A stretch of DNA of 64,000 nucleotides from positions 7,755-71,754 of the forward strand of contig JBCCWR010000001.1 of assembly GCA_039193385.1 (NCBI GenBank), read 5' to 3'. Of this stretch, positions 745 through 44,435 are shown piece by piece. The translations under genes and the position numbers were made by a program. How positions within the stretch are numbered: the first letter of the stretch is position 1; each line of letters starts with the position of its first letter. The stretch is from Verrucomicrobiota bacterium. Lineage in GTDB: Bacteria > Verrucomicrobiota > Verrucomicrobiia > Methylacidiphilales > JBCCWR01. The notes beneath the pieces were generated by a model that did no database searches, had not been told where the DNA came from, and worked only from the letters and a program-made list of their open reading frames with translations.

Positions 745-777
745 GGTCTTATCGCTATTGCTTCATGCGGGTTTAAC
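745..777 (+). repeat. dispersed intergenic repeat, short copy
   Basis: CTATTGCTTCATGCGGGTTTAA shares the ATTGCNTNATGCGGGTTNAA core with eight other sites in the window. It begins 9 nt after the MCP stop codon. Confidence 0.5.
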
Positions 778-887
778 AAAATGATGGATTAGGGCCGATA
801 GCTCGAGGTAAGTAAATGTTTCCGCTTATTCATTCATGGGTAGAGGCGCTTTTTTTGACAGCCATAAGAATGATGTAAGATTGGGTT

Positions 888-1346
888 ATGGCAGAATTAA
901 AAGTTGGCAATAAGGCACCCGCTCTTACAGCCCTAAATCAGTCAGGTGAGAAAGTCAGTCTGCAGGACTTTGCGGGTCAGCGCGTTGTTCTGTATTTTTA
1001 TCCCAAGGATGATACGCCCGGATGCACCAAAGAGGCTTGTGCTTTTCGTGATAACCATAAAGCCTTTGCCAGTAAGAATACGGTCATTCTGGGAGTCAGT
1101 CCAGATGCACCCCAGAAGCATGAAAAATTTATCACTAAATATAACTTACCCTTCACCTTGTTGGCGGACGAAGATCATGCCATAAGCGAAAAGTATGGCG
1201 TTTGGGTGGAGAAGAGTATGTATGGCAAACAGTACATGGGCGTAGAGCGCTCAACCTTTGTTATTGATGTGGAAGGTAAGCTGGAGGCTATTTACCACAA
1301 GGTTAAGCCCGAGCCACATGTCATGGAGGTGCTGGAATCGCTCTAG
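888..1346 (+). CDS. bcp: thioredoxin-dependent thiol peroxidase (peroxiredoxin Bcp)
   Basis: 152 aa with the AhpC/TSA motif FYPKDDTPGCTKEACAFRD. Length and layout are typical of Bcp. Confidence 0.9.
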   Translation: MAELKVGNKAPALTALNQSGEKVSLQDFAGQRVVLYFYPKDDTPGCTKEACAFRDNHKAFASKNTVILGVSPDAPQKHEKFITKYNLPFTLLADEDHAISEKYGVWVEKSMYGKQYMGVERSTFVIDVEGKLEAIYHKVKPEPHVMEVLESL

Positions 1347-1361
1347 CTGATAAACTTTCCA

Positions 1362-1581
1362 ACCATGAAGAACATGAAGGAAGTGAAGGAAAAAGCCTTT
1401 TAACCCGCATTAACCAAACAGAACGAGTCAGATGTGTTAATGCTTCAGGAGAAGAGACTTTAGAGACAATGCAGTTGTATCAAAAAGTATTACGACAAGT
1501 TTGCTATAAAGTCTCCACTTCCAAGATCTTGCACAGATGATCGTGTTGCTATTGCATTATGCTCTTCAAGTTCTTCATGGT
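1362..1581. repeat. ~220-bp imperfect palindromic (MITE-like) non-coding element
   Basis: Outer inverted repeats are ACCATGAAGAACATGAAG (1362-1379) and CTTCAAGTTCTTCATGGT (1564-1581), matching 17/18. An inverted pair of dispersed-repeat copies sits at 1398-1436 (-) and 1515-1562 (+). Inner inverted repeats are AGACTTTAGAGACAA (1455-1469) and TTGCTATAAAGTCT (1501-1514). No credible ORF is present. Confidence 0.45.
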
Positions 1582-1607
1582 AAAAATGAGTTCTAAAGCT
1601 GACCGTC
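1558..1607. repeat. extra copy 1 of the comM-proximal 27-mer plus a diverged remnant of the comM 3' end
   Basis: TATGCTCTTCAAGTTCTTCATGGTAAAAATGAGTTCTAAAGCTGACCGTC aligns with the native sequence at 2450-2503 (CATGCTCTTCAAGTTCTTCATGGTAAATTAGCCCCAGAGTTGACGGTC). Confidence 0.6.
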
Positions 1608-1733
1608 ATTGATGTGGAAGGTAAGCTGGAGGCTATTTACCACAAGGTTAAGCCCGAGCCACATGTGATGGAGGTGCTGGAATCGCTCTAGCTGATAAAC
1701 TTTCCAACCATGAAGAACATGAAGGAAGTGAAG
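1608..1733 (+). repeat. 126-bp duplicate of the bcp 3' end plus 42 nt downstream (source 1263..1388)
   Basis: Position-by-position comparison at offset 345 gives 125/126 identical. The only difference, at 1322 versus 1667 (gtc/gtg), is synonymous in the bcp frame. Confidence 0.95.
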
Positions 1734-1888
1734 TTAAGACCACCCAAAAGGCATCAACACTGTAGTTTTTTTCTTCAAAAGAAGACATTTTCATAAGTTG
1801 ATTCGAGGAGATCAAGGCCAGGGCCAAGGTGTTTATGAATTTCGATAGCACAGCCAATGACTTGATTGGACAACTGGGTCAATTTCAT
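1734..1888 (-). pseudogene. 5' fragment of a GxxExxY-family (PD-(D/E)XK) gene
   Basis: From the ATG at 1888 it reads MKLTQLSNQVIGCAIEIHKHLGPGLDLLESTYENVFF, then TGA at 1775-1777. This is clearly homologous to the first ~35 codons of the intact gene at 2038..2409, after which similarity is lost. Confidence 0.8.
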
Positions 1889-1956
1889 TTTATTGCTTAT
1901 TTTTATAAAATCACCAAGACGTATGCGTCGTAAGAAAGAAGTGAGTTAAAACGCAT

Positions 1957-2010
1957 CATGCTCTTCAAGTTCTTCATGGTAAAAATGAGCTCCAAAGCTG
2001 GCGGTCGAGG
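1957..2010. repeat. extra copy 2 of the comM-proximal 27-mer plus a remnant of the comM 3' end
   Basis: CATGCTCTTCAAGTTCTTCATGGTAAAAATGAGCTCCAAAGCTGGCGGTCGAGGG. The minus strand still reads LDRQLWS, compared with the native comM C-terminus LDRQLWG*. Confidence 0.75.
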
Positions 2011-2037
2011 GCATGATGGCTATGGCATAATACGGAT

Positions 2038-2409
2038 TTAAAGAATAAAACTTTTCAGGCCATTCTTAAGTTTTGTCGTAATGAAATTAATAAGAAAGCC
2101 GTATTTGATTTTAGCCAGCTTCATGTATGTGATTAACTGAGCTTGATGAATGTTTTTAATTTCATCGACGCTCTTCAGTTCCAGTATGATCTGATTATCA
2201 ACCAAGATATCGATTCTGTAAGCACAGTCTATGGATACATTTTTGTATGTTACAGGTAGAGGGTGTTGTAATGTGAAGTTGATATGATGTGTTTGTAATT
2301 CGTAAGCGAGACATTTTTCATAAGTTGATTCCAGAAGACCCGGGCCTAGGTTTTTATGGACTTCGATAGCGCAGCCAATGACTTGATTGGATAACTGGGT
2401 AAATTTCAT
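2038..2409 (-). CDS. GxxExxY family protein (PD-(D/E)XK nuclease superfamily)
   Basis: 123 aa with the signature GPGLLESTYE (G-x-x-E-x-x-Y) and a D...ELK motif (RIDILVDNQIILELKSV). The size is typical of the family. Confidence 0.85.
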   Translation of the reverse strand: MKFTQLSNQVIGCAIEVHKNLGPGLLESTYEKCLAYELQTHHINFTLQHPLPVTYKNVSIDCAYRIDILVDNQIILELKSVDEIKNIHQAQLITYMKLAKIKYGFLINFITTKLKNGLKSFIL

Positions 2410-2476
2410 TTTATTGATACTTTTAAAAAATTACCAAGATTGAGAGGTTCATGCTCTTCAAGTTCTTCATGGTAAA

Positions 2477-4027
2477 TTAGCCCCAGAGTTGACGGTCGAG
2501 GGTGCGGTATTGCACCGCTTCACTGACATGATCGGCACGGATGTGTGGGCTCTCTTCTAAATCTGCGATGGTGCGGGATACTTTTCGGATGCGATCGTAA
2601 GCGCGTGCGGAGAGATTCAGATCTTCCATGGAGTAACGGAGGATGTTTTGAGATTCTTCATCAAGGGGTGCAAAGTTCGTTAGTTCTTTGGCATTCATCT
2701 GTGCGTTACACCAGATTTTTCTGCCATTGCTGCCATTGGATGATTGGTAACGTTTTTGTTGAAGCTGACGGGCTTGTATGATGCGTTGGCGAATGGTGGC
2801 CGAGTTTTCACCGTTATTTTGGTCTATGAGGTGTTTATGTTCCAACGCAGCAACCTCAAGGTGAATGTCAATGCGGTCTAGAAGAGGGCCAGATATTTTA
2901 TTGAGGTAGCGTTGCATGGCGTGATGCGAGATTTTTCCTCTGTCTGCATCGCCGTGAGATCCCGAAGGCGTGGGGTTCATGGCGGCGACAAACATGAAGC
3001 GCGAAGGAAAGGTGAGCGAACCGGATGCTCGGGAGATGGTGACGCTGCCATCTTCCAGAGGCTGGCGCAGCACTTCCAGTGCGGAACGTTTGAACTCTGG
3101 CAGCTCGTCCATGAAGAGTACGCCATTGTGCGCCAGCGAAACTTCTCCGGGGGTAGGATTGGCTGAACCTCCGATGAGGCCAATATCAGAAATGGTGTGG
3201 TGTGGAGAGCGAAAAGGGCGCTGTGCGATGATGGGTTGCTGTGGGCTGGTCAGCCCGCATACGGAATGGATGCGAGTTGTTTCAAGGGCTTCTTCAAGTG
3301 TGAGTGGTGGAAGGATGGTTGGTATACGTTTGGCCAACATGCTTTTACCCGCGCCAGGGTTGCCTACCATGAGGAGATTATGTCCCCCAGCAGCGGCAAT
3401 CTCAATGGCACGTTTGGCCGACTCCTGACCTTTGACCTCGGCAAAGTCGAGTGAATCTAACATACGGTTGTGGCTGGCAGCGGGATCAAAATTTCCCCGC
3501 TGCGGGGTGATGTCGAGTTTACCCTCGAGGAATTCGACAGCTTGTCCCAGGGAATGAAGAGGATAGACGGATAACCCTTCTACTACGGAAGCTTCTCCGG
3601 CATTTTCATGCGGCACGAGTAAACCTCGACAGCCTTTTTCACGAGCCAGTAAAGCCAGAGGCAGAATACCTCGAATAGCGCGTAGACTACCGTCCAGAGC
3701 AAGTTCCCCAGCCATAAAAAAGTGATGAAGCAGTTGAGGCTCCAGTTGTTTCGATGCGGCAAGAATGCTCAGGGCGATGGGCAGGTCAAAGATAGGACCT
3801 TCCTTTTTAATGTCAGCAGGGGCGAGGTTGATGGTGATGCGTCCATCCGGATGATCGAAGCCGCTGTTGGCTAGAGCTGTTTTAACACGATCGCGAGATT
3901 CCTTAACGGCTGTGTCTGGCAGACCTACCATAACGACGGCGGGAAGTCCGCGTCCAGAATCTACTTCCACTTCCACAGGAAAGGCTTGTACACCGATGAC
4001 CGCTCCAGACAATGCTTTCGCTAACAT
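2477..4027 (-). CDS. comM: YifB/ComM family Mg-chelatase-like AAA+ ATPase
   Basis: 516 aa. It has an N-terminal Lon-like domain (MLAKALSGAVIGVQAFPVEVEVD), Walker A GNPGAGKS, and VLFMDELPEF. Confidence 0.9.
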   Translation of the reverse strand: MLAKALSGAVIGVQAFPVEVEVDSGRGLPAVVMVGLPDTAVKESRDRVKTALANSGFDHPDGRITINLAPADIKKEGPIFDLPIALSILAASKQLEPQLLHHFFMAGELALDGSLRAIRGILPLALLAREKGCRGLLVPHENAGEASVVEGLSVYPLHSLGQAVEFLEGKLDITPQRGNFDPAASHNRMLDSLDFAEVKGQESAKRAIEIAAAGGHNLLMVGNPGAGKSMLAKRIPTILPPLTLEEALETTRIHSVCGLTSPQQPIIAQRPFRSPHHTISDIGLIGGSANPTPGEVSLAHNGVLFMDELPEFKRSALEVLRQPLEDGSVTISRASGSLTFPSRFMFVAAMNPTPSGSHGDADRGKISHHAMQRYLNKISGPLLDRIDIHLEVAALEHKHLIDQNNGENSATIRQRIIQARQLQQKRYQSSNGSNGRKIWCNAQMNAKELTNFAPLDEESQNILRYSMEDLNLSARAYDRIRKVSRTIADLEESPHIRADHVSEAVQYRTLDRQLWG

Positions 4028-4113
4028 CAGAATGTTATGCCGGGGCGTTGAAGCTATTGTCTAGCGATAACACTTGAATGTTTAAAAAAATAGAGCGATG
4101 TAACGTTTAATGA

Positions 4114-5415
4114 TCAGGTGGATCGCTGGCCGGCCCTTTTACGTACGGTTTTTTTAACGGTTTTTCGAGCCGTTTTCTTCGCTACGGGTTTTTTGGAGAC
4201 CGCTTTCTTGATCGTTTTTTTGGTAACTTTTTTGGCAGAAGCAGAACGTTTGCGAGCTATCTTTTTATTTGTTATTTTTTTAGCTGCCTTGCGAGGAGTG
4301 CTTGATGCAGGACGCGTATTGTCTACCGAAGCGAGGAGCAGATTAAGTGCTTTAAGGATATGGATTCCTTGAGGTATTTCAAATGCTTGAGGATTGTATT
4401 CGTTCTCTCGGCTGCGAGTTTTGATCCAGCGAATCTTGGCCGCCTCGGAGACATGGGAGATGTCTGATTTTTCAAGACGACGCACATGCTTGGGAAGTAT
4501 TTTAAATAAACCTTCCAAGCCATCACTGAAGCTCGCCATAGGGTCCATATGATGCAGGGCCTGCTGTACTTTCTTCGCATCGAAGGTAAGCTTAAGCTTC
4601 AAGATGGAGATGGTTTCAATCATCCAAGTCAGTGCGGCATCTGCAAGTTTGCTGTTATCAAGCTCGGATGGATCTTTGCTGGTTGTACCGCCGCCAACAG
4701 AGCTGTGTCCTCCAGGGAACCAAACTTCTATGACGCGTTGAGAGGCAGGAGAGTGTGTGCCTTTATCCATAGGCGTATTACAAAAAGAACGACGCTTTTC
4801 ATCAATGGCTACGGCATGCAGGGCATTTTTAATAATAGGACTGATGCTTGTATCATGAAACTGGTATTTCCCATTCCAGAGACGATCCAGAGGAATGAAG
4901 GGAACAATGTCGGGCAATCCGCGTGAACCGACGGTGTCCCAACATGCTACCAGATCTATGTTGATTTCACGGCTAAAGCTTTCGCGAAACTCGACCTTTT
5001 CCTTTTCGTTAAAATCCTTACCGCTTTTATACGTTTTAAAAGCTTCATCAATGTGGGAAAAGAATTCTGTTTTGAGAAGGCCGACATGGTAGATCATACC
5101 TGCCAGACTGCGCACAGTGTAAGCGCCGCGGCTGTAACCAAAAAAGTATAGCTCATCTCCCGGTTCATAATTGAGGATGAGAAAGCGATAGGCTTCTTTG
5201 ATGTTCTGGTCGAGTCCTTTGCCGAAGGCGCCGCCACGAAGTTTGCTCAGAGGGCTGTCTGTGCCGACACCAGAATCATAGTATTTGATTTGAGGAACAG
5301 GGCTGGGTCCGGTGGTGTCGAGAGTTTCAATAGCCTCATAAATTTTGAAAACATTGGTTTGATTCGCTGGTGTGAGCCAGGTTCCGTCACAACAAATAAT
5401 AAGACGTTTTTTCAT
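4114..5415 (-). CDS. DUF2235 (Tle1-like alpha/beta hydrolase) protein with a Lys-rich histone H1-like C-terminal tail
   Basis: The N-terminus LIICCDGTW...GVGT...FFGYSRGAYTVRSLAG (GxSxG) is typical of DUF2235. The last ~65 aa are KKAAKKITNKKIARKRSASAKKVTKKTIKKAVSKKPVAKKTARKTVKKTVRKRAG. Confidence 0.8.
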   Translation of the reverse strand: MKKRLIICCDGTWLTPANQTNVFKIYEAIETLDTTGPSPVPQIKYYDSGVGTDSPLSKLRGGAFGKGLDQNIKEAYRFLILNYEPGDELYFFGYSRGAYTVRSLAGMIYHVGLLKTEFFSHIDEAFKTYKSGKDFNEKEKVEFRESFSREINIDLVACWDTVGSRGLPDIVPFIPLDRLWNGKYQFHDTSISPIIKNALHAVAIDEKRRSFCNTPMDKGTHSPASQRVIEVWFPGGHSSVGGGTTSKDPSELDNSKLADAALTWMIETISILKLKLTFDAKKVQQALHHMDPMASFSDGLEGLFKILPKHVRRLEKSDISHVSEAAKIRWIKTRSRENEYNPQAFEIPQGIHILKALNLLLASVDNTRPASSTPRKAAKKITNKKIARKRSASAKKVTKKTIKKAVSKKPVAKKTARKTVKKTVRKRAGQRST

Positions 5416-5526: not shown

Positions 5527-5548
5527 TTGAACCCACATTATGCACATT
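5527..5548 (-). repeat. dispersed intergenic repeat, short degenerate copy
   Basis: The minus strand reads AATGTGCATAATGTGGGTTCAA and starts 3 nt after the yraN stop codon. Confidence 0.35.
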
Positions 5549-5550
5549 AC

Positions 5551-8924: not shown

Positions 8925-9004
8925 ATTTAGAGTGTAATTTAGGAAGATGAATTGGAAAGTGAAAGTTGCTGACCTCTATTGAAATTATGGCAGTTGAAAT
9001 CTTA

Positions 9005-9024
9005 AATGCATAATGCGGGTTCAA
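9005..9024 (+). repeat. dispersed intergenic repeat, short copy
   Basis: AATGCATAATGCGGGTTCAA lies in the elbB/nrdB divergent spacer. Confidence 0.4.
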
Positions 9025-20323: not shown

Positions 20324-20374
20324 TATGCTTTTTGATATCTTTAAACCGGCATTGAGCAATAGCAACACGACCAT

Positions 20375-20428
20375 CTTCCCAAGCTTTCACACATCTGACT
20401 CGCCCTCTATTGCTTAATACAGGTTAGA
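20375..20428 (+). repeat. dispersed intergenic repeat, long degenerate copy
   Basis: CTTCCCAAGCTTTCACACATCTGACTCGCCCTCTATTGCTTAATACAGGTTAGAA aligns along its length with the copy at 44384-44435. Confidence 0.45.
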
Positions 20429-20470: not shown

Positions 20471-20671
20471 ATGAATATATTACGAGTTTGCATATTCTGT
20501 GGGGTGGGTGTTGTTCTGATTTTTAGTTTGAGTTCTTGTGCGCAAATGCGCACAGATCCTGAAAAAGAGGGTTGGCAAGGACCAGGCGTCAGTAAAAACG
20601 AAGTGGATTACGCTGGTGAGCATCCAGCAGATACGCGCGTGGATGCTTTTCGTTTTAAGAAGACGCTATAG
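20471..20671 (+). CDS. small putative lipoprotein
   Basis: 66 aa with a signal peptide and lipobox (LSSC). Its 3' end overlaps the convergent creC by 17 nt. Confidence 0.4.
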   Translation: MNILRVCIFCGVGVVLIFSLSSCAQMRTDPEKEGWQGPGVSKNEVDYAGEHPADTRVDAFRFKKTL

Positions 20672-22115
20672 GGAGTTGCAGTTGGGCTTTGGTTCCAGAG
20701 TCTTGGTTATTTCTTTTTGTCAGTTGAATTTCCCCACCGTGTAAAGTAGCCACTTCCTTCACAAAGGGAAGACCGAGCCCAGAGCTCTTGTGTTTTGAGT
20801 CAGGGCGAGGAAGTGAGTAGAAACGATCAAATATTTTATCTTGTGCGTACTCGGGGATACCCGTGCCTTGATCTTCGATCATTATATAGGCTATGGCATT
20901 CTTACAAGTAAGAGATACCTGAATGGCACCTTTCTTTGGGCTAAAATCAATAGCGTTTTGCAGCAAATTTAAAATGGCCTGATGGAGTAGGAACGCATCA
21001 CCCTTTACATAGATATGATCCTCTAAGTTCATTTGAAGACTTAACTGTTTTGCCATTAAAAGAGGGGTCCTGCTATTAATGGTTTGCTGGATTAATGGAT
21101 TCAGATCGATCGGTTCATAGGTTTCAAGTGACTTAATAGATTCGAGAGAGGCCAGTCTTAGCATTTTTTCAATAATGCCTGTTATGCGTTGGGCCTCATT
21201 CTTGATGTTAGTGAGGAATTTATGGCGTTGCGCGAGTGACATACGTTCCTGCAAAAGTTCAGCCGCTCCTCGTATAGCCGAAACAGGGCTTTTAAGTTCG
21301 TGCGTTAATGTTTGTACATACTGTTCAACGTATTGGCGGCCTTCGAGGGCGTCCCGCATTTCTTCAAAAGCGAAGCCAAGTTTTTTTAATTCACGCGCCA
21401 TGAAGAGTTGTGGCAATTTCACACGCTGGCCATCACGCACCTGACGAGCATACTGAGTTAAAGCGGATATGGGATGCGTGAGCCAGAATGAAATAAGCAG
21501 TCCGAGCATGATTGTGCCCAGACCGGCATATATTCCAGTGCGTATTACTTTCTGAGTGGCGGTATGGATAAATTCACTCAGACCTGTTGTCGGTTTGCAT
21601 AAGGTAAGCACACCAATAAGTTTGCCATCTTTTATCATAGGTGAGGCAACATAGAGCGTGCTGGCTGTGGGGTTAGATGGGTCATCTTTGGTGGAACGGG
21701 CCCCATATTTTCCCTGAAGCGTAAGCTTCACATCGCGCCAATGCGAATAGTCTGCGCCGATTTTGGCTCTTTTCTCTGGTGCCCGCGAATCATAAAGGAT
21801 GAATCCCTTGGCATCTGTTATGTATATATCGACATCAATATTATTTTTAAGACGTCCATAGATCTGTGCCTGAGGGTTCGTTGTGTGAACATGGGCGAAG
21901 ATACGCTCAAGCTTTGCTTTATGAATGACATTATCTTGTTCATGCAGTGCTTGTGTAACCAGTGATGCCAGCAGATTGGATGAATCAACGAGTGATTCTT
22001 CAATGGACTCGAGATAGCGCGGGCGAAGCTCATTGATCACCGAATGGGTCAGATAATAAATACCAATAGCGGTAATTAAGATATAGGAAAGAAAGATGCC
22101 ACGTCGTATGGTCAT
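20655..22115 (-). CDS. creC: two-component sensor histidine kinase, CreC-like
   Basis: 486 aa. DYSHWRDVKLTLQGKYGARST and YVQTLTHELKSPVSAIRGAAELL closely parallel E. coli CreC as I recall it. HATPase motifs are present (NAIDF, DQGTGIP, GLGL). Confidence 0.8.
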   Translation of the reverse strand: MTIRRGIFLSYILITAIGIYYLTHSVINELRPRYLESIEESLVDSSNLLASLVTQALHEQDNVIHKAKLERIFAHVHTTNPQAQIYGRLKNNIDVDIYITDAKGFILYDSRAPEKRAKIGADYSHWRDVKLTLQGKYGARSTKDDPSNPTASTLYVASPMIKDGKLIGVLTLCKPTTGLSEFIHTATQKVIRTGIYAGLGTIMLGLLISFWLTHPISALTQYARQVRDGQRVKLPQLFMARELKKLGFAFEEMRDALEGRQYVEQYVQTLTHELKSPVSAIRGAAELLQERMSLAQRHKFLTNIKNEAQRITGIIEKMLRLASLESIKSLETYEPIDLNPLIQQTINSRTPLLMAKQLSLQMNLEDHIYVKGDAFLLHQAILNLLQNAIDFSPKKGAIQVSLTCKNAIAYIMIEDQGTGIPEYAQDKIFDRFYSLPRPDSKHKSSGLGLPFVKEVATLHGGEIQLTKRNNQDSGTKAQLQLPIASS

Positions 22116-24683: not shown

Positions 24684-27452
24684 TTATTTATTAACTATTT
24701 CACCGACATGGGTAAGTAGAACTTCCAGAAATTGTTTTTTTCTAGTTGCTGGTAGCGTATTTAACATGGAGGCATAGTAAACGACTTTCCCTTCGCCCAG
24801 ATCCCCTCCTGGAGTGACGAGGGCGGCAGCATCTCCGATGTATTCGCCATCTCTTTTCACCATAGCCAAAGGCGTATAATCTACTGCATCCGGATAACTG
24901 CTTTTATGCATAAGTCGACTTGTTCTTGTTTTTGTACTTAAATTTTTCCAATTCCAATTTCTAAATTTATTTTTAAATAATTCCGCAAATTCCACAGTGC
25001 AATGACGGTCCCCTTTCTCACGAGATAGTTTAAAGCCAATTTCCGTTGAAGCTTGTTTTCCCTTTGCAGGTTGTTGTAAGGGATTACTACCTTCAGACAT
25101 GACCAAAAGGACGGCACCTTCTTTAAGGCAGCTTTTCACGTAATCATTAACCTCCCGCAGAGAAGAATCACCCGTTTTGTAACCATCATTACTCTGAGCC
25201 ATGAGAATAACCGATTTAGAAGGTCGATTTTGGATGATTTTACTCCAAGGCATAAAGCGAAGGTTTAATGCTGGAGCTACATTGTTTAACTCAACAGGTA
25301 GTTTTGTTAGTTGTTCAATATCCGCATAAATGGGAGTATTCCGGAATAAATCTTTCCATTTGGCCGTTACTTTTTCTGGGAAGAACTTGGGGTCTCTGTA
25401 ATAGTCTAATACCGACTGAGGTTCATACGTTACAGGTTCTGGAGTTATGTTGGGAAATGACACATCTTTGCCGGCTACAAGTTGACCAGCGAGTCCTGCA
25501 AGTCTCATATAAAAATCAGAAGGCATCCCTTCATAAGTGGTGAAGCGTCCTACGGGTGGATTATTCGTGCATTTGAAGATAGCCGTAGCCTCATCCACCT
25601 CATCAAACATGGCCACGTAAATCATATTGATGCCATATTGCTTAGCCAGTTCTGCCTGACGCCAGAAGAACTTACCTTGTAATCTAGGAACTAAGTTAAG
25701 TTGTGCTCCCGTCTTGAGATTGGCCCAACTAAATCCAGGATAAAGAACCGGGTAGTAATCGAGATCATGGGTTTTGCAGACTTCCAGGTCTCCAGTTACC
25801 ATTTCAGCAAAGAATTCTTCAGCCAACTCTGGAGAACGATACCTCCCCACGGTCCATGGGCTCACAACGCTGACATATTTCTTTACCAGCTCCATCCTTT
25901 CATCATCCCACTGCGCCCAGTCGTTATCAGGTAATCCGACCATGATGGTGCATCCGCCATTTTGAGGATCTTTCATAAACTTGAATAGTTTTTCAGCAGC
26001 GGCAGGATCCCAAGGGCGGGATTTATCCGCATAGCCCCAATAAGTGACTACGGGCGCGCCGCGGTGTCGCATATAAGCAGGGGTCTCTGTTATTTTCATT
26101 TTATGGTAGAGCAACTTCCAATCCTCTATCATCGCATTACATACCTCAGCACTGAAACTGACGTCATACATAACGGCAAAAGTACGCCCATAACGGTTAG
26201 CACCTTCACGACAATGGGATAATACAGCTATATCACCCGCGGTATGACGATGCCTGCCTTTCGACATGAAAGTGTTGCCAAAACGTTGCTTGAAGACTCC
26301 GTGTATCTTGTAGTCCTGCATCCATTTAAAATGCCGTAGAACAGTTTTTCTATTTTTAGAGCTGAAGACATAGGCAGGCGAACCATCGTTATACTTATAG
26401 TTTGTAGCGTATTTCTCATCATCATCCAATTCGCTCATATCGGGCCACAGGTCGACCGTGCATCGCGGAGGATCGTTGAGTACATTCCCCCAATGGACAA
26501 GCTTATCGGAGTATCCATCATCAGGATGGGCAAACCATCCCTGGTAACCGCACATAACTTTGTTGTACAAGGTGGTATTATCCTCTGGTTCCACTATAGG
26601 TCCAGAGTATGGAACCAGCAGTTCTTCAAGCGGCAGGATGGTGTGTTCGATATTAGTAGAAAGTGTTTGTACCGGGGTAGGTTCCGTGGTCTGAGCTGTA
26701 TCCGTAGCCTGAGTTGTATCCGTGGCCTGAGTTGTATCCGTAGCCTGAGTTGTATCCGTAGCCTGAGCTGTATCCGTAGCCTGAGCTGTATCCGTAGCCT
26801 GAGCTGTATCCGTGGCCTGAGCTGTATCCGTGGCCTGAGCTGTATCCGTGGTTTCAGGTTCTTTGGCTAAAGATACTATTTCGTAAGTCGTATCGGATGA
26901 AATGGGGGCTAGTGTATCTTTTGTATTAACAAGAGGGTCGACTTCGTCAGAAGTATCCTGAATCTCAATGCCTTTTTTGACGGCACGAGGTTGTACCAAA
27001 TTTTGTTCATCATGATCATCACTGCCAAAGGGAAAAAATAAATAAATGCCAGCGCCTAATATTGTCAGCAGGAAAAGAAGAGGAATGATTTTGCCCGAAG
27101 CACTCTCTTTCTTATGAACGGAGTATTTTGTATTTGAAGCTGGCCTGTTAGGTGGTCTGCTGGATATTTGAGTTGAAGCTGTTTGTGGAGCTGTAACCTT
27201 AGGTAATGGAGAAGAAATCTTGGTTACGAAGTATTGAACTCCGCATTGACATGAAAGTTCAGAGTTGAGGTGCTCTTGTGAAAGCTGATAAACCTGACCA
27301 CAATGATAACAGGTGACTTGCCAATGCACTAAGTCAGAAGCCCCCATTGCGTAAATGGTTTTTTCACAACTACATGTGTACCATTGACCTTCTGTTTGCG
27401 TGTCAAAGGAATAAATCGATTTACACTGGGGGCACTGTGATTCGTAAGGCAT
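24684..27452 (-). CDS. large membrane-anchored protein: two Cys-rich zinc-ribbon-like modules, TM helix, TDTAQA repeat linker, ~650-aa glycoside-hydrolase-like domain (function uncertain)
   Basis: N-terminus CPQCKS...CSC and CYHCGQ...CQC. Transmembrane helix IIPLLFLLTILGAGIYLFF. Nine hexapeptide repeats. The C-terminal domain begins VMCGYQGWFAHPDDG. 922 aa. Confidence 0.8.
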   Translation of the reverse strand: MPYESQCPQCKSIYSFDTQTEGQWYTCSCEKTIYAMGASDLVHWQVTCYHCGQVYQLSQEHLNSELSCQCGVQYFVTKISSPLPKVTAPQTASTQISSRPPNRPASNTKYSVHKKESASGKIIPLLFLLTILGAGIYLFFPFGSDDHDEQNLVQPRAVKKGIEIQDTSDEVDPLVNTKDTLAPISSDTTYEIVSLAKEPETTDTAQATDTAQATDTAQATDTAQATDTAQATDTTQATDTTQATDTTQATDTAQTTEPTPVQTLSTNIEHTILPLEELLVPYSGPIVEPEDNTTLYNKVMCGYQGWFAHPDDGYSDKLVHWGNVLNDPPRCTVDLWPDMSELDDDEKYATNYKYNDGSPAYVFSSKNRKTVLRHFKWMQDYKIHGVFKQRFGNTFMSKGRHRHTAGDIAVLSHCREGANRYGRTFAVMYDVSFSAEVCNAMIEDWKLLYHKMKITETPAYMRHRGAPVVTYWGYADKSRPWDPAAAEKLFKFMKDPQNGGCTIMVGLPDNDWAQWDDERMELVKKYVSVVSPWTVGRYRSPELAEEFFAEMVTGDLEVCKTHDLDYYPVLYPGFSWANLKTGAQLNLVPRLQGKFFWRQAELAKQYGINMIYVAMFDEVDEATAIFKCTNNPPVGRFTTYEGMPSDFYMRLAGLAGQLVAGKDVSFPNITPEPVTYEPQSVLDYYRDPKFFPEKVTAKWKDLFRNTPIYADIEQLTKLPVELNNVAPALNLRFMPWSKIIQNRPSKSVILMAQSNDGYKTGDSSLREVNDYVKSCLKEGAVLLVMSEGSNPLQQPAKGKQASTEIGFKLSREKGDRHCTVEFAELFKNKFRNWNWKNLSTKTRTSRLMHKSSYPDAVDYTPLAMVKRDGEYIGDAAALVTPGGDLGEGKVVYYASMLNTLPATRKKQFLEVLLTHVGEIVNK
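26691..26852 (-). repeat. 9 tandem copies of an 18-bp in-frame repeat (encodes TDTAQA/TDTTQA)
   Basis: On the plus strand CTGAGCTGTATCCGTRGC is repeated head to tail with only 1-2 variable positions per unit. It lies inside CDS 24684..27452. Confidence 0.95.
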
Positions 27453-35130: not shown

Positions 35131-35189
35131 CACCACTTCCAAGATCTTGCACAGATCGTCGTGTCCCAATGGCATAATGCGGGTTCAAT
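35131..35189 (+). repeat. dispersed intergenic repeat, long copy
   Basis: CACCACTTCCAAGATCTTGCACAGATCGTCGTGTCCCAATGGCATAATGCGGGTTCAAT lies 30 nt after the HDOD gene stop. Confidence 0.5.
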
Positions 35190-35955: not shown

Positions 35956-36531
35956 GTGGCCGGGTATTTACCTCTGGTAGTTGGTCTGGGAAATCCCGGA
36001 TTATTTTATCGGAAGACTCGCCACAATGTTGGGTTTGAGGCTGTAGACCAACTTGCAAAACTTCGGAGAGGAAGTTGGAAGAAGCTACGCTTTACAAAAG
36101 CCAAAGGGTGCCAGATTGAAAATGGCAGTTGGCTGATGAAACCGATGGATTATATGAATACATCGGGTCCGGTGGTCAATAAGGCCATGCAATGGTTTAA
36201 ATTGAAGCCGGGACAGATTTTAATAGTGGTGGATGATGTAAATCTGCCTCTGGGTAAACTTAGATTGAGAGCAAAGGGATCGGCCGGTGGACATAATGGG
36301 CTGAAGTCCATAGAGCAAGCGCTCAATACGCAGGAATATCCCAGACTGAGAGCCGGGGTGGGCGCCTCGACTCATGATGGAAAAGATTTAAAGGCTCACG
36401 TATTGAGTCGTTTTAGTAAAGAAGAATGGCAGGCCGTTCAGATGATGGTAGAAAAGAGCGTTGAAGTTATTGAGACATATCAAGCTCATGGTTTGGATGC
36501 GGCGATGCAAAAAGGAAACAGTAGTTTATGA
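35956..36531 (+). CDS. pth: peptidyl-tRNA hydrolase
   Basis: GTG start. LVVGLGNPGLFYRKTRHNVGF and GHNGLKS. Confidence 0.9.
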   Translation: MAGYLPLVVGLGNPGLFYRKTRHNVGFEAVDQLAKLRRGSWKKLRFTKAKGCQIENGSWLMKPMDYMNTSGPVVNKAMQWFKLKPGQILIVVDDVNLPLGKLRLRAKGSAGGHNGLKSIEQALNTQEYPRLRAGVGASTHDGKDLKAHVLSRFSKEEWQAVQMMVEKSVEVIETYQAHGLDAAMQKGNSSL

Positions 36532-36863
36532 AAAATAAGTATGAAGCGACCTATATTCTGGATCTTCAATCCAAAGAAGAGCTCGTTAAAGAAGCAATTA
36601 TAAAGCTGACCAAGGAGATCGAATCTTTTGGAGGGAAAGTGAGTAATACACAGAGATTGGATAGAAGGAAATTTGAACGTGTAGCAGGGAAGCTGGATAC
36701 AGGCTATTACCTCATAGCTAACTTTGAAATGGACACGCAAAAGCTAGCTGGCCTTAAAAAGAAACTTCAATTAGATGATTTGGTCTATCGTCAATTTTAT
36801 CTTGTAGATGATGGCAAACAATCAGCCCCTGTTGAAAAAGAGGCAGCTCCGGCTGTAGCATAA
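36528..36863 (+). CDS. rpsF: 30S ribosomal protein S6
   Basis: KYEATYILD...GYYLIANFE. It overlaps pth through an ATGA sequence. Confidence 0.9.
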   Translation: MKNKYEATYILDLQSKEELVKEAIIKLTKEIESFGGKVSNTQRLDRRKFERVAGKLDTGYYLIANFEMDTQKLAGLKKKLQLDDLVYRQFYLVDDGKQSAPVEKEAAPAVA

Positions 36864-36913
36864 GCTATTCACGAGTTTGCAATGAGCTAATATCAAAACC
36901 ACACTAAGACAAA

Positions 36914-37423
36914 ATGGCTTCTCTAAATAAAGTAATGTTAATGGGTAATCTCACAAGAGATCCTGATGTGCGTCACACGCCCAAAGGTACTGCCGTGGGA
37001 GATCTCGGATTAGCCATTAACATGTCATATCGCACTCAAGATGGACAAGATCGAGATGAAGTATGTTATGTCGATGTTGTGGTATGGGGTCGTCAGGCTG
37101 AAACATGCCAACAGTATCTTCGTAAAGGGGCGCCTGTTTTTGTAGAAGGGCGTTTGCAGCTAGATCAATGGCAGACCCAGGATGGTGAGAAAAAAAGCCG
37201 ACTACGTGTTCGAGCCGAGCGTGTGCAATTTCTCAGTGGCGGTGGAGGCGGCCGCAGCGGTTCTGGAGGCGGCAATTATTCAAGTAGTGGAAACCAGGGT
37301 AGCTCCTACGGCCAGCCTGATAACTACGGAGCGCCACCAGCCGGTGGTGGTGGCTACTCACAAGGAGATGGACCTCCTACGTCTTCGCCGGCTGGCGATC
37401 CCGATGACGAAATACCGTTTTAA
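36914..37423 (+). CDS. ssb: single-stranded DNA-binding protein
   Basis: LNKVMLMGNLTRDPDVRHTPKG, a Gly-rich tail, and the acidic tip DDEIPF. Confidence 0.92.
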   Translation: MASLNKVMLMGNLTRDPDVRHTPKGTAVGDLGLAINMSYRTQDGQDRDEVCYVDVVVWGRQAETCQQYLRKGAPVFVEGRLQLDQWQTQDGEKKSRLRVRAERVQFLSGGGGGRSGSGGGNYSSSGNQGSSYGQPDNYGAPPAGGGGYSQGDGPPTSSPAGDPDDEIPF

Positions 37424-37464
37424 TAGATTAAAATTTAGATTCAAAATATTAGGAGTACTACAAA

Positions 37465-37962
37465 ATGGCAATGGAACTGATTCTTAAAAAACACATACCA
37501 GGACTAGGGGCAGAAGCTGATATTGTAAAAGTGAAGCCTGGCTATGCGCGCAATTTCCTCATTCCTCGTGATTATGCAACTGTCGCAACGGGTGCTACGA
37601 AGAAACTGGTGGAAGACCTTAAACGCAAACGTGCCGAACGTGAAGCAGAAGAGCTGAATCGTGCGAATGATCTGGCAGGTAAACTTGGTAAAGTCACTCT
37701 GACATTTCAGATGAAAAGCTCTACAGATGAGAAAGTATTTGGCTCTGTGACGGCTAAAGACATTATTGAGCGACTCAAAGATATGGATATCCAACTTGAG
37801 CGTAAGCGCATTAAGTTAGGACAGCCTCTGAAAGAAAAAGGGGAACATAAGGTGGATATAGACCTTGGAAGTGGTGTTCATTCATCGATCAAAGTCGTCG
37901 TCGATGTTACCTCTGAAGACAAAGAAGAGCAGGATTCCAAAGATAAAAAGAAGAAAAAATAA
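37465..37962 (+). CDS. rplI: 50S ribosomal protein L9
   Basis: MELILKKHIPGLGAEADIVKVKPGYARNFLIPRDYA. Confidence 0.92.
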   Translation: MAMELILKKHIPGLGAEADIVKVKPGYARNFLIPRDYATVATGATKKLVEDLKRKRAEREAEELNRANDLAGKLGKVTLTFQMKSSTDEKVFGSVTAKDIIERLKDMDIQLERKRIKLGQPLKEKGEHKVDIDLGSGVHSSIKVVVDVTSEDKEEQDSKDKKKKK

Positions 37963-38089
37963 ATCTTTATTTTTATCAAGAGAAGAAGAGTTAAGTTTGT
38001 TGCATCGGCACTTAACATCAAGACCAGGTGCTTGATTCGGCACAACTTTTTAGCTATTTTAAATACGTATGATGTAATAGAGGGCGAAT

Positions 38090-38138
38090 CAGATCTTGCA
38101 CAGATGGTCCTATCACTATTGCATCATGCGGGTTAAAT
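38090..38138 (+). repeat. dispersed intergenic repeat, long copy
   Basis: CAGATCTTGCACAGATGGTCCTATCACTATTGCATCATGCGGGTTAAAT ends 10 nt before the tRNA 5' end. Confidence 0.5.
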
Positions 38139-38147
38139 CTTGATTTT

Positions 38148-38222
<75 letters not shown>

Positions 38223-39984: not shown

Positions 39985-40049
39985 AGCATCGTTATCTAAG
40001 ACACAAAAAATGAAACCTACCAGATTTTAAATAGCCATATAGTCTGGTT

Positions 40050-41234
40050 TCAGATCATGATAGCTTCAGTGTCTTTAGAAACGGCTCTTTCATCCGCTGA
40101 GCCTTCTATGATGACGGGCTCAAAGACTTTAGTGAGTTGCGAAAAATTTCTGATTCTTTGCAACATGATCGGAGAGATTTTATAACCTGCTCCCACAAGG
40201 GTTAATCCTTCCTCCGTCTTGATGTCTTCCAGAATAACCGTGCCTGGCTTGAGCTCATTGAGACCGATTTCTTGCCTGGGTGCTTCACTCAAATAAAAAA
40301 CCGTCCACTCATCGAGATATTCCAATAGTGCGGGGTCATACCAGCCCGGTCTTCCCTTAAGTATTTCTACAGCTTTGATACGTGAGACGCCAGTGGACTC
40401 CTGCAACATGACATCTTTGAGAAGTTTAAGTATTCGAGCTCCTTGCGGAATTTGTTCGCCAGCTAGCGAGTCCTTTGGATAACCGCTGCCATCATAGAGC
40501 TTGTCCTGGTAGAGGATAAACTCAGCTACTTCATCCATACGGGGAATTTTCTTGAGGAGTCGAGCGCCTAGGCTGGGAATGTCACGGATCATTTCCTTTT
40601 CCGCAGCAGTCAAAGCATTGTCCAGATTGTAGCGTTCCATGACATCGGGAGGAACAGCTGTAGCTCCAATGGAGCTCAAGAGCGCAGCTATTTCTATGAT
40701 CCAGCTTTGCTCAATATGGCATACGTGCGCGAATGTTTTGACGTAGTCGCGTAAACGTTGAGCTCGTCCGAAAGCTTCGGGTTGTAAAATAGATAAAATA
40801 TCTATGAGCACACGGATGCTACCCTTTAATGTCTTCTCCAACAACTCATGCTCGGCCATGACCAAGCGGTATTTCTCAAGGCCGGAATCAAGTGCATTAG
40901 CCAGCATCTCATTGCTACATGGCTTGGTTAGAAATTGGAACACCTGCCCTTGATTGACTGAGCGGATCGTGGTGTCTTGATCCGCATTCCCCGTAAGCAT
41001 GATGCGAACAGTATCTGGAGCTAATTTCTGCATGTGTTGCAGCAGTTCCAGTCCGCCCATCTCCGGCATCTTTAGGTCAGCTACCAGAATGGCATAGGGA
41101 CCTTGTTCTGATACAATCTTGAGGGCTTCACGACCATTCATGGCCGTATCAAACTCATATCGGTCTAAGAAATTTCGCTGATACGCGGCCAGGATTTTAG
41201 GATCATCATCTACATACAATATTTTTTCGTTCAT
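40050..41234 (-). CDS. response regulator: receiver domain plus degenerate HD-GYP domain
   Basis: REC domain ILYVDDDPKIL...ILVADLKMPEMGG. The output domain keeps DGSGYP, but it has AALLSSIG where HD-GYP proteins have AALLHDIGK, and YQD in place of HHE. Confidence 0.75.
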   Translation of the reverse strand: MNEKILYVDDDPKILAAYQRNFLDRYEFDTAMNGREALKIVSEQGPYAILVADLKMPEMGGLELLQHMQKLAPDTVRIMLTGNADQDTTIRSVNQGQVFQFLTKPCSNEMLANALDSGLEKYRLVMAEHELLEKTLKGSIRVLIDILSILQPEAFGRAQRLRDYVKTFAHVCHIEQSWIIEIAALLSSIGATAVPPDVMERYNLDNALTAAEKEMIRDIPSLGARLLKKIPRMDEVAEFILYQDKLYDGSGYPKDSLAGEQIPQGARILKLLKDVMLQESTGVSRIKAVEILKGRPGWYDPALLEYLDEWTVFYLSEAPRQEIGLNELKPGTVILEDIKTEEGLTLVGAGYKISPIMLQRIRNFSQLTKVFEPVIIEGSADERAVSKDTEAIMI

Positions 41235-41264
41235 ACTTACCCATACCTATCGATTCTATCCATT

Positions 41265-42878
41265 CTATGCTGCTATGTCTTGATCTGCGCTCTCCCCTAC
41301 CTCCAGAGGCAAATTAACAATAAAAATCGTTCCTCTATCTGTTTCCGTCTCAAATTCGATGGTTCCACCATGGTGTTCATGAATCACGGAATGCGCCAGG
41401 GCCAGCCCCTGGCCTGTTCCCTGCCCAATATCTTTGGTTGTGAAAAATGGTTCAAATATGCGTGACTCAACTTCCTTGGGAATTCCTGAACCAGTATCCC
41501 GAATGCGTATCTCGATTGTTTTATCCAGCAGTTTGGAACGCACTGCTATGACCCCGAGCCCTTGATGTTGCTCTGCTTGACGTTGTTCGATGGCGTCTAT
41601 GGCATTGATCATAAGGTTAAGAAAGACGCGCTGGATTTCATTGGGGTGACAGTAAATTTCAGGTATGGCCGGATCAAACTGAGTCACCACACGCGCAATA
41701 GATTTCCACCGGTTACGTGTCATGGTAATGCTTCCTTGAATGGCTCGGTTTACATCAAACAGCACACTGTGGCTGGCCCCCGGATGAGAAAAGTCATTCA
41801 TCGCTTTTACTATACCGGCGACGTGTTCCACACCTTCCAGGCTGTCCCGCAACGCCGCAGGTAATTCACGCAATGTGAACTCCAGATCAACACCTTGAGG
41901 AAGGGTTACTTTTGATTGGTCTAGGGCCGCCGCCGCTTTAATGAGGGAGGCCATATATTTTTCAATAAAACGTAAATTCTCCTGTAAATATTGCAGTGGC
42001 GTATTTATCTCGTGGGCTACGCCTGATGCCAGTCGACCAATGGATTCCATCTTTTGTGCGTTCATAAGTTGACGTTCCATACGTCGACGTTCGGTTACAT
42101 CCTGAATGATGGCGATGCAGTGCTTGATACCACCGTCATCATCTTGAACAGGGCTGACACGGCACTCCATATTTCTTCCTTCGTGCAGACAGTGGAGAAT
42201 CTTCAATCCATGAAGCTTGATGTCATGGGCCAGTTCTGAAATTTCCAGTTGAGCGAGTGCTGAGCCCACGCCAGCAATTTCTTTTGCTGAATGATGCATC
42301 ACTTTTTCTCGAGTTACACCGAGCATTTTTGTCAATGCGGCATTGATATAAAGCACAAGTTGTTCTCCGGTGGGCTTAAAGACCAGAATACCTTCTCCCG
42401 CCTGATCAATCGCTGCCTGAATCATCAGGAGGTTTTGCTCCATACTATGGTAAACTTTTTGTTGTTCGATTTGTTGGAGAGAACGTGTGACCAAAGCGGG
42501 AACTTGCTTAACAAGATTTGCACTTTTGACTAAATAATCAATGGCTCCTCGTTTCATCCAGTTAACTGCCAGTGAAAGGTCATCCGCTCCCGTAATGAGA
42601 ACAAAGGGAGTGACTTTATTATTCTGTTGAAGCTTGTTTAGGAGATCTTCCCCGTTGAGATCGGGCAGGCCTAGATCAACTAGTAAAAGATCAACATCTG
42701 ATTTTAAGAGGTACTCCAGAGCTTCCAGTCCTTTATTGAAACAAATGAGTTCAATATCAAGAGACGTGAGCGCATGCTGCAAAGAACGAAGCACAGCTTT
42801 ATCATCATCAATGGCCACGACTTTCGCGGTCAGATGTTGTGTTTTGAACCCTTTCGGGTAGGAGGGCACCATCTCCAC
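41265..42878 (-). CDS. hybrid sensor: N-terminal receiver + PAS + HisKA/HATPase histidine kinase
   Basis: REC domain (VVAIDDD...LLLVDLGLPDLNG), H-box SGVAHEINTPLQY, and N/G boxes NLMINAIDA, DTGSGIP and GTGQGL. Confidence 0.8.
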   Translation of the reverse strand: MEMVPSYPKGFKTQHLTAKVVAIDDDKAVLRSLQHALTSLDIELICFNKGLEALEYLLKSDVDLLLVDLGLPDLNGEDLLNKLQQNNKVTPFVLITGADDLSLAVNWMKRGAIDYLVKSANLVKQVPALVTRSLQQIEQQKVYHSMEQNLLMIQAAIDQAGEGILVFKPTGEQLVLYINAALTKMLGVTREKVMHHSAKEIAGVGSALAQLEISELAHDIKLHGLKILHCLHEGRNMECRVSPVQDDDGGIKHCIAIIQDVTERRRMERQLMNAQKMESIGRLASGVAHEINTPLQYLQENLRFIEKYMASLIKAAAALDQSKVTLPQGVDLEFTLRELPAALRDSLEGVEHVAGIVKAMNDFSHPGASHSVLFDVNRAIQGSITMTRNRWKSIARVVTQFDPAIPEIYCHPNEIQRVFLNLMINAIDAIEQRQAEQHQGLGVIAVRSKLLDKTIEIRIRDTGSGIPKEVESRIFEPFFTTKDIGQGTGQGLALAHSVIHEHHGGTIEFETETDRGTIFIVNLPLEVGESADQDIAA

Positions 42879-43049
42879 TACTATCGGCTACAGGATGTAT
42901 AATTATAGTGTAAATCCTCAGTAGCTAAAGCCATTGAAAATAGTCGATAAACGATCTAACGCATAGTTTCAGTATCGAGCCAATAAAAGAACTGAGCTTG
43001 TAGCTTGTGCTTGTGTACGGCTACTTATTGTTCAGATCATGAATAGAAC

Positions 43050-44351
43050 CTAGAGTCCGCATTTTTTAAACTTGCTGTCAATATGCTGAAAGTGGCGGTC
43101 AAGCGAGCAAGCTTCCCGAAGCTCTTGTTCATTGAGCTTCTTGCGGATTACAGAATTTTCCAAAAGATGATCGAGTAAGGTAACGTCACTATTGATATCT
43201 TCCCAGGTCGCCATAGCACTTGTTTGAACCGCTTCATAAGCCCGACGGCGTTCCATACCTTTTTCTGTAAGAGCCAAAAGAACGCTTTGTGAAAAGTACA
43301 GTCCTTTTGTGATATCGAGGTTTTTCTTCATGTTTTTGGGATAAACAACCTGTTTATCAACCAGCCAAATCATTTTAGCCAGCATGTAGTCGAGCAGTAT
43401 GGTTGAGTCCGGGCAGATAATGCGCTCGACGGATGAGTGCGAGATATCACGCTCATGCCAAAGAGCCACGTTTTCCATGGCCGCCAGAGAGTGGCCACGG
43501 ATGACTCGAGCCATACCGCTCAGACGTTCACCAATAATGGGATTGCGCTTATGGGGCATAGCGCTGCTTCCCTTCTGACCTTTAGCAAAAAATTCTTCAA
43601 CTTCCAGAACCTCTGTTCTTTGTAGATGGCGAAATTCTGTAGCCCAGCGGTCGATGCTCGATGCAATAAGGGCCAGTGTGGTCATGTAGTGTGCGTGACG
43701 GTCACGCTGAATCACCTGCGTAGAAATATTGGCAGGCTTAAGTTTAAGCTGACGGCAAACATACGATTCAACACGCGGATCAAGGTGGGCATGGGTTCCC
43801 ACAGCACCGGAAAGTTGCCCAACAGCGATGTGTTGCCGAGCTTCCAGCAAACGTTGCTCACAACGTGTAAATTCTTCATACATTAAGCCGAGTTTTAAAC
43901 CATAGCTCACAGGTTCGGCGTGAATGCCATGCGAGCGGCCGATCATGGGCGTGTATTTATATTTACGTGCTTTTTTGGCGATAACGCGCTTAAGGTCTTT
44001 GAGATCCTTGAGTAAAATATCAGATGCTTGACAAAGTTGAAGCGCCAACGTGGTGTCGAGAAGGTCTGACGAAGTCAACCCTTGATGAATCCAGCGTCCG
44101 CTAGGTCCGACGAAGGTCGCTACGTTTTCCAGAAAAGCCAGTACGTCATGATGCGTCCGTTTTTCATTTTCCTGAACTTGCTTGAGATTAAATTTAGCAC
44201 GTTTACGAATAATCTCTGCATCTCTTGCAGGGATTTTTTTATACTTTGCCATACCCTCACAAGCGAGGACTTCAATTTCCAGCCAATGCTTCAGCTTAGC
44301 TTCTTCCGTCCAAATGGCAGTCATTTCTGGCCTTGAGTAACGTTCAATCAT
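43050..44351 (-). CDS. purB: adenylosuccinate lyase
   Basis: MIERYSRPEM..., the SSAMPHKRNP signature, 433 aa. Confidence 0.92.
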   Translation of the reverse strand: MIERYSRPEMTAIWTEEAKLKHWLEIEVLACEGMAKYKKIPARDAEIIRKRAKFNLKQVQENEKRTHHDVLAFLENVATFVGPSGRWIHQGLTSSDLLDTTLALQLCQASDILLKDLKDLKRVIAKKARKYKYTPMIGRSHGIHAEPVSYGLKLGLMYEEFTRCEQRLLEARQHIAVGQLSGAVGTHAHLDPRVESYVCRQLKLKPANISTQVIQRDRHAHYMTTLALIASSIDRWATEFRHLQRTEVLEVEEFFAKGQKGSSAMPHKRNPIIGERLSGMARVIRGHSLAAMENVALWHERDISHSSVERIICPDSTILLDYMLAKMIWLVDKQVVYPKNMKKNLDITKGLYFSQSVLLALTEKGMERRRAYEAVQTSAMATWEDINSDVTLLDHLLENSVIRKKLNEQELREACSLDRHFQHIDSKFKKCGL

Positions 44352-44383
44352 AAGCGGGAAACAATGCCTGAGACATAACGATT

Positions 44384-44435
44384 CTCAAGCTTTTACACGT
44401 CTGATTTGCTCTCTATTGCTTAATGCGGGTTAAAA
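44384..44435 (+). repeat. dispersed intergenic repeat, long copy
   Basis: CTCAAGCTTTTACACGTCTGATTTGCTCTCTATTGCTTAATGCGGGTTAAAA ends 1-2 nt from the argA stop codon, which is on the opposite strand. Confidence 0.5.

Follow-up and report, generated by a model that had tools for sequence, protein, structure and literature searches.

A 64-kb stretch of a Verrucomicrobiota metagenome-assembled genome (assembly GCA_039193385.1, contig JBCCWR010000001.1, positions 7,755 to 71,754; hereafter the window, with positions counted from its first nucleotide) harbored a family of short intergenic repeats with the 20-nt core ATTGCNTNATGCGGGTTNAA, and these repeats were very probably MITEs (miniature inverted-repeat transposable elements) derived from an IS1380-family insertion sequence (IS), mostly decayed in this contig. 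A MITE is a non-coding element that arises from an IS by internal deletion. The copies are not independent motifs but terminal inverted repeats (TIRs) of short palindromic elements: each element is bounded by the 17-bp TIRs CCCGCATNATGCAATAG / CTATTGCNTNATGCGGG and is flanked on both sides by a directly repeated, AT-rich 5-bp target, TTNAA or more generally WTNAW, and in other genomes the same TIRs enclose IS1380-family transposase genes (Aliarcobacter cibarius plasmid pACIB and several metagenome contigs) or adjoin a transposase gene fragment (Crocinitomix). A preliminary description of the window had offered, as one of several possibilities, that the repeats were arms of a MITE-like element at 1362-1581; this was essentially right and extended to the whole family.

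The core gave 10 matches in the window at ≤3 mismatches, compared with 0.31 expected from 100 dinucleotide-preserving shuffles (maximum of 2 in any shuffle). The 22-nt consensus CTATTGCNTNATGCGGGTTNAA had 12 sites at ≥14 of its 19 specified positions (about 1.9 in shuffles), and hidden Markov models (HMMs) of the two arm subtypes found these sites again but no others across the 64 kb; no copy lay past 44.5 kb. All nine copies listed in the preliminary description were present at or near the coordinates given there and were real or at least plausible, with that at 5527-5548 being marginal (14/19 positions, the chance boundary; nhmmer E ~1), but the list had overlooked the partner arms 20341-20362(-) and 38059-38080(-), by which two of its entries become complete inverted-repeat elements, along with two lesser sites, an arm in degenerate form (2013-2041, plus strand) and what may be half an arm (1945-1961, minus strand). 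The intergenic location of all copies was borne out by open reading frame (ORF) coordinates, with the 2013-2041 arm overlapping the GxxExxY stop codon by 4 nt. Both the palindrome GCAT-N-ATGC and the division into two arm subtypes agreed with the first description, and the subtypes are two different subterminal arms (A-type and B-type) of one directional, hairpin-forming element. Three elements had both ends and about six sites had a single end (Table 1); the elements were short (78-164 bp), carried no transposase, and folded stably into long hairpins, neither strand being consistently favored in folding energy. The family appears to be unnamed, as already supposed: as far as checked, neither an Rfam match nor a paper with the terminal sequence was found, and literature searches on the terminal sequence, TTNAA, and IS1380-derived MITEs yielded no description of a MITE family with these ends.

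An exact-pattern scan for the 20-nt core, applied to one genome per species, gave at least 117 loci. Among the matches listed, these were overwhelmingly from marine Bacteroidota, with several copies per genome (17 loci in a Roseivirgaceae metagenome-assembled genome [MAG], 8 in a Saprospiraceae MAG, and 6 in each of two further MAGs, one of Dokdonia and one of Cyclobacteriaceae), together with Ignavibacteriales loci and scattered single hits that were probably due to chance; at least 41 inverted pairs among the same listed matches defined elements mostly 177-195 bp in length, plus a few minimal hairpins of 49-90 bp. The Bacteroidota elements displayed the layout TTNAA–CCCGCATTATGCAATAG ... CTATTGCATAATGCGGG–TTNAA, and conservation in these loci ran inward from the core and ended exactly after GGGTTNAA. 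Two distinct arms and a central hairpin were recognized in an alignment of 30 of the paired elements, and the longest internal ORFs had ≤65 codons and no transposase likeness. One MITE copy with an ATAAT duplication was found on the mobilizable Microscilla plasmid pSD15.

The two flanks were compared in 40 of the 41 listed pairs, namely those with both flanks readable, with 10,000 permutations as reference. The central base of TTNAA was alike on both sides in 33/40 pairs (permutation mean 16.0, maximum 26), and the whole flanking 5-mer was identical in 26/40 (permutation mean 13.0, maximum 22); by size, and again among the matches listed, the central base matched in 31 of the 34 elements of ≥130 bp and in two of the six short ones. 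The rare matching pairs TTCAA/TTCAA (L005 and L082) and TTGAA/TTGAA (L022) were especially telling. In the window, the two elements with both ends intact likewise lay in 5-bp direct repeats: TTAAA/TTAAA for 38059-38137 and TTAAA/TTAGA for 20341-20428. IS1380-family elements have direct repeats of 4-5 bp, and their ends begin with CC in the ISfinder family description; the CCC termini plus the 5-bp duplication thus predicted an IS1380-family origin. Direct repeats of 5 bp are documented for IS1247, a member of this family (PMC3281130, Table 2).

An autonomous partner fitting this prediction was present on a plasmid. A blastn search of PLSDB with a 34-nt end matched A. cibarius pACIB at 67 nt from a gene annotated as 'IS1380 family transposase', and the IS there had the structure ATTAA–CCCAGATTATGCAATAG–429-aa ORF–CTATTGCATAATGCGGG–ATTAA with a length of ~1.46-1.47 kb. 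Its transposase matched Pfam PF13701 (E 9.4e-44) and NCBIfam NF033539 (NF033539.1, 'IS1380 family transposase'; 231.9 bits, cut-off 180) and had 4,555 homologues at E ≤1e-20, many of them on ~1.5-kb contigs as expected of a repeated IS. The contigs of three of these homologues had the same ends and the duplications ATTAT (at two independent sites), ATAAA, TTAAA, and TTTAA; 5-bp duplications were found at six IS insertions, with termini CCC.... Within Bacteroidota, a Crocinitomix contig (L056) carried the C-terminal part of a transposase that shares 63.5% identity with its Aliarcobacter counterpart, and this fragment ended beside TTTAA–CCCGCATTATGCAATAG. Moreover, the 18-nt subterminal stretch GAAGAAGCAATAAAATAT occurred both in the IS end from Aliarcobacter and in the left arms of several Bacteroidota MITEs, which fits derivation of the MITEs by internal deletion. 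An IS5/IS1031 or PIF-like origin (TNA duplication) was dropped after the IS1380 partner had been found. As a separate observation, the IS copy at L131 had one end tandemly duplicated (CCCGAATTATGCAATAAG twice, 1399-1433), and the opposite end recurred, its subterminal sequence identical, 278 bp past the IS (3136-3152); this arrangement suggests either a partial copy next to the IS or duplication of ends.

Other searches for a partner or for further copies gave little. When ORFs of ≥150 aa within 3 kb inside every arm were clustered over the 117 loci listed, no transposase was found next to any MITE, and the recurrent families beside the arms were housekeeping proteins only, e.g., DEAD-box helicases and a pseudouridine synthase. 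The longer MITE variants (200-360 bp) were considered as transposase remnants and rejected; they contained nested small hairpins or composite copies instead. A metagenome scan with a strict A-arm pattern gave no match, and one with the GCTT-variant TIR gave 5 loci, mostly coincidental or coding matches; viral contigs gave only 2 matches, both probably chance, and a plasmid search with the full 177-bp MITE gave no match.

Three minor features were seen in the Bacteroidota copies: (i) 49-bp 'TIR–3 nt–TIR' hairpins (L066 5776-5824, L069 6844-6892, L070 4007-4055, and L105 5707-5755), which, in contrast to the full elements, mostly had unmatched 5-bp flanks and could be extreme deletion derivatives or products of excision and repair; (ii) a nested GC-rich hairpin of ~30-40 bp, e.g., CCCCGCCTGCCAAAGTCTTGTACGGCGGGCAGG, in some copies (L098 2941-3177, L110 6747-6982, L005 60-254, and L044 24-218), which has the look of another small mobile palindrome that entered a MITE arm; and (iii) the position of many elements at or near contig ends, which suggests that the elements break assemblies there.

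On the MITE reading, an IS1380-family transposase supplied in trans would bind the 17-bp ends, excise or copy the element, and insert it at WTNAW with a 5-bp staggered cut, giving rise to the duplication. The window copies would then be old, mostly inactive fossils, as judged from their substituted ends, one truncated end, the roughly six single ends, and a window devoid of transposase; the single ends would have been left by deletion or recombination, and the copies would have persisted only in intergenic DNA, mostly just past stop codons, at AT-rich and insertion-tolerant sites. Several points weigh against this reading: (i) no transposase gene or fragment was found in the window; (ii) the duplication was testable in just two window elements, and one of the two pairs differed at one base; (iii) about half of the window copies were single ends, so that a simple MITE model needs secondary decay; (iv) past the ~22 terminal nt, the window arms were weakly similar to the Bacteroidota and IS arms; (v) the histidine kinase encoded by a flanking gene (20655-22115) was 100% identical to an NCBI protein from 'Verrucomicrobiota bacterium' on a 74-kb contig but just 54% identical to its next best match, and three window proteins had no exact entry in the contig index, so that no empty site came up for comparison and mobility in this lineage is presumed; and (vi) the taxonomic spread is known from a sample of at least 117 loci.

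The best surviving alternative, albeit quite unlikely, is a structured RNA or regulatory module of 3′ untranslated regions (3′-UTRs), i.e., a stabilizer, terminator, or protein-binding site, either primary or exapted from MITE ends. The location of the copies speaks for it: seven of the eight loci were within ~100 nt of a stop codon (2, 3, 8, 18, 31, 53, and 97 nt), in agreement with what had first been described, and one element ended 10 nt before the tRNA-Met gene. The elements also fold stably, apparent compensatory changes were seen in the central hairpin of the Bacteroidota elements (e.g., CATAGC..GCTATG vs CGTAGC..GCTACG), and members of the IS1380 family are known sources of outward promoters. 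However, an Rfam search at gathering thresholds, applied to the window and eight Bacteroidota loci with full elements, detected only the tRNA-Met in the window; promoter and terminator scans placed no such site inside any arm; folding energy favored neither strand consistently; the solo arm 44384-44434 was antisense to both neighboring genes; the window copies were decaying rather than conserved; and the complete elements had one arm in each orientation. The earlier proposal of a same-strand 3′-UTR RNA module was not supported, given the two arm orientations and the lack of any Rfam, terminator, or promoter match. Clustering just downstream of stop codons is most simply accounted for by AT-rich WTNAW targets plus purifying selection against insertion in genes and promoters, and exaptation may have turned individual copies, such as the one preceding tRNA-Met by 10 nt, into regulatory sites.

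It is highly unlikely that the copies are repetitive extragenic palindromic (REP) sequences or REPINs, that is, short palindromic intergenic repeats occurring in inverted pairs and mobilized by RAYT, an IS200/IS605-like Y1 transposase. The copies do resemble them in being short, intergenic, and multi-copy and in forming inverted doublets that fold into long hairpins. Nevertheless, the elements have 5-bp target duplications, and Y1-type single-strand transposition is not known to make any; the very same termini enclose a DDE transposase gene of the IS1380 family, not a RAYT gene; and GCAT-N-ATGC, with a 4-bp stem and a 1-nt loop, is too small for a REP-type hairpin. The target duplication and the bounding of an IS1380 DDE transposase gene by these termini speak against the former suggestion of REP-like elements; no RAYT association was seen, no genome-wide search for RAYT having been made.

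Site-specific recombination sites, integron attC-like or Xer/dif-like, with GCAT-N-ATGC as the crossover core and GTTNAA as a counterpart of the attC R′ box, are hardly credible, for although a palindromic core was present, rearrangement junctions lay exactly at GCATNATGC (1562 and 1953-1961), and GGGTTAAAT resembles GTTRRRY, the copies formed no cassette array or attC/CALIN (cluster of attC sites lacking integron-integrase) array, whose sites lie between promoterless cassettes and usually near intI, and instead stood one by one between housekeeping genes (bcp, yraN, elbB, the SDR gene, rplI/tRNA-Met, and purB-like and argA-like genes), the sequence downstream of the core was unconserved and showed no 28-bp dif-like architecture, conservation stopped exactly at a 5-bp flank that behaves as a target duplication, and the ends belong to a DDE transposon.

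The MITEs and their full-length relatives were then set against known systems. Like the IS1380 family (ISEcp1, IS1247, and IS1380), the full-length relatives pass the family models and have a single ORF, a length of ~1.46 kb, short TIRs starting with CC(C), and 5-bp direct repeats; unlike these, the window elements lack a transposase and measure only 78-164 bp, and the TIR CCCGCATTATGCAATAG plus the palindromic WTNAW target distinguish this subgroup from other IS1380 members. In common with bacterial MITEs (Correia/NEMIS, RUP, ERIC, Nezha, IS982-derived MITECca01, and Tn3-derived TIMEs), the elements are short, non-coding, multi-copy, and intergenic, share TIRs with a parental IS, have target-site duplications, and fold into long hairpins, but they differ from these MITEs in having an IS1380 parent (the Cardinium MITE derives from IS982) and in their cross-phylum spread, the MITEs themselves occurring in Bacteroidota, Ignavibacteriales, and Verrucomicrobiota and complete IS copies in Campylobacterota and Bacteroidota. 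The intergenic inverted doublets forming hairpins are shared with REP/REPIN, while the target duplications and the ends in common with a DDE transposon are not.

A further likeness concerned piggyBac, the eukaryotic relatives of IS1380, which share termini CCC...GGG and a palindromic AT-only target (TTAA vs TTNAA/WTNAW); the duplication here is of 5 bp with a free central base rather than of 4 bp, and the transposase has ~430 aa. IS1380 transposases have been placed as the prokaryotic outgroup of piggyBac (PMC10813416), and the likeness of the ends stands as an observation rather than as a proof of homology. A bolder and doubtful proposal is that of an ancient, horizontally spreading IS1380 lineage with its MITEs in Verrucomicrobiota, Bacteroidota, Ignavibacteriales, and Campylobacterota, with ends and target mirroring piggyBac and, separately, with some single ends beside stop codons or the tRNA gene exapted for regulation; if true, it would provide a tractable prokaryotic model for the origin of piggyBac-type target choice and excision. 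The cross-phylum spread and the piggyBac-like ends and target are mildly interesting in themselves, and the palindromic TTNAA target with CCC/GGG ends gives a small but testable link to piggyBac biology.

The repeat is ordinary selfish DNA and not a new regulatory signal, and its recognition accounts for an unannotated repeat that is easily mistaken for a regulatory motif. The 17-bp TIR plus WTNAW flanks can serve as a search model for masking and annotation in MAGs of Verrucomicrobiota and marine Bacteroidota. Within the window, the elements mark a past rearrangement (the mosaic between bcp and yifB; see below), and a local effect is conceivable for the one lying 10 nt upstream of a tRNA gene. 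Neighboring genes were ordinary: those for a chemoreceptor, bcp, yifB, yraN, elbB, nrdB, an SDR gene, an HDOD-domain gene, L25, pth, S6, ssb, L9, tRNA-Met, and purB-like and argA-like genes.

Table 1. Elements and single ends of the repeat family in the window.
Feature	Coordinates	Strand	Ends, arms, and flanks	Basis	Setting
Solo end, A-type arm	744..776	+	TIR CTATTGCTTCATGCGGG 755-771, then TTTAA 772-776	0 mismatches to core; A-arm HMM E 9.5e-8	Starts 8 nt past chemoreceptor stop codon
Longest window element, 164 bp	1399..1562		Flank TTTAA 1399-1403; left TIR CCCGCATTAACCAAACA 1404-1420, pairing with truncated right TIR 1549-1562; left arm B-type, minus strand, to ~1448; right arm A-type, plus strand, 1524-1562; right end cut off inside TIR after GCATTATGC	Folds as long hairpin; B-arm HMM E 8e-14; A-arm HMM E 4.5e-12	
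Possible outer half of TIR	1945..1961	-	GCATGATGCGTTTTAAC on minus strand	Read from sequence; weak; missed by HMMs	At rearrangement junction
Degenerate solo end	2013..2041	+	CTATGGCATAATACGGA plus TTTAA	3 mismatches; 16/19 consensus positions; HMM E 0.07 (weak)	Overlaps GxxExxY stop codon
Marginal solo end	5527..5548	-	TTGAA, then CCCACATTATGCACATT, on plus strand	3 mismatches; 14/19 positions; HMM E ~1	3 nt from yraN stop codon
Solo TIR	9003..9024	+	(TA)AATGCATAATGCGGG plus TTCAA	1 mismatch; HMM E 0.012	Divergent region between elbB and ribonucleotide reductase small-subunit gene
Complete minimal element	20341..20428		TTAAA, CCGGCATTGAGCAATAG ... CTATTGCTTAATACAGG, TTAGA on plus strand; TIRs 20346-20362/20407-20423; left arm A-type (reverse complement), right arm B-type	A-arm HMM E 3.9e-12; B-arm HMM E 2e-15	Starts 18 nt past SDR stop codon
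Solo A-type arm	35131..35188	+	TIR CAATGGCATAATGCGGG 35167-35183, then TTCAA	HMM E 9.8e-15	Starts 31 nt past HDOD-domain gene stop codon
Complete minimal element	38059..38137		TTAAA, TACGTATGATGTAATAG ... CTATTGCATCATGCGGG, TTAAA on plus strand; TIRs 38064-38080/38116-38132; left TIR (minus-strand copy, degraded) with 4 substitutions		Just past rplI terminator-like hairpin 38028-38043; ends 10 nt before tRNA-Met 38148-38222
Solo B-type arm	44384..44434	+	TIR CTATTGCTTAATGCGGG 44413-44429, then TTAAA	0 mismatches to core; HMM E 1.5e-15	Outer end 2 nt from stop codon of minus-strand gene 44437-45726

The region 1260-2500 between the convergent genes bcp and yifB displayed a mosaic structure: (i) a 129-bp direct duplication, 1260-1388 / 1605-1733, 98% identical and copying the bcp 3′ end; (ii) the last ~50 nt of yifB together with the stem downstream of that gene, in triplicate (1554-1607, 1953-2006, and 2449-2502); and (iii) an intact GxxExxY (TIGR04256) gene, 2038-2409(-), accompanied by a pseudo-copy (1788-1909, corresponding to 2315-2430) that takes in the gene's upstream region and first 33 codons. 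Three MITE fragments lay at the mosaic junctions, and in two of these the break coincided exactly with the GCATNATGC palindrome. Five copies were present of an inverted motif, ACCATGAAGAAC(A/T)TGAAG(G/A)A with its complement TCTTCAAGTTCTTCATGGT, at 1363-1390 and 1708-1735 (+) and at 1557-1584, 1956-1983, and 2449-2476 (-); they bracketed the GxxExxY copies and probably made up the bidirectional stem that originally separated bcp from yifB. The GxxExxY nuclease gene was considered as a partner of the repeat family and rejected, since elsewhere it showed no association with the repeats; a literature search on GxxExxY found almost nothing.

Three further observations concerned the rest of the window. 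The 433-aa protein encoded at 4114-5415(-), among housekeeping genes, carried a catalytic domain like that of the type VI secretion system phospholipase Tle1 (PF09994, E 5.5e-79) and gave no NCBIfam match. The gene order at 36528-37962 was rpsF–ssb–rplI, with only 41 nt separating ssb and rplI and no S18 (rpsR) ORF at its usual position. An 18-nt tandem repeat of ~13 units (TCCGTRGCCTGAGYTGTA) was found at 26647-26885 inside the 922-aa ORF 24684-27452(-) and presumably encodes a repetitive protein segment.

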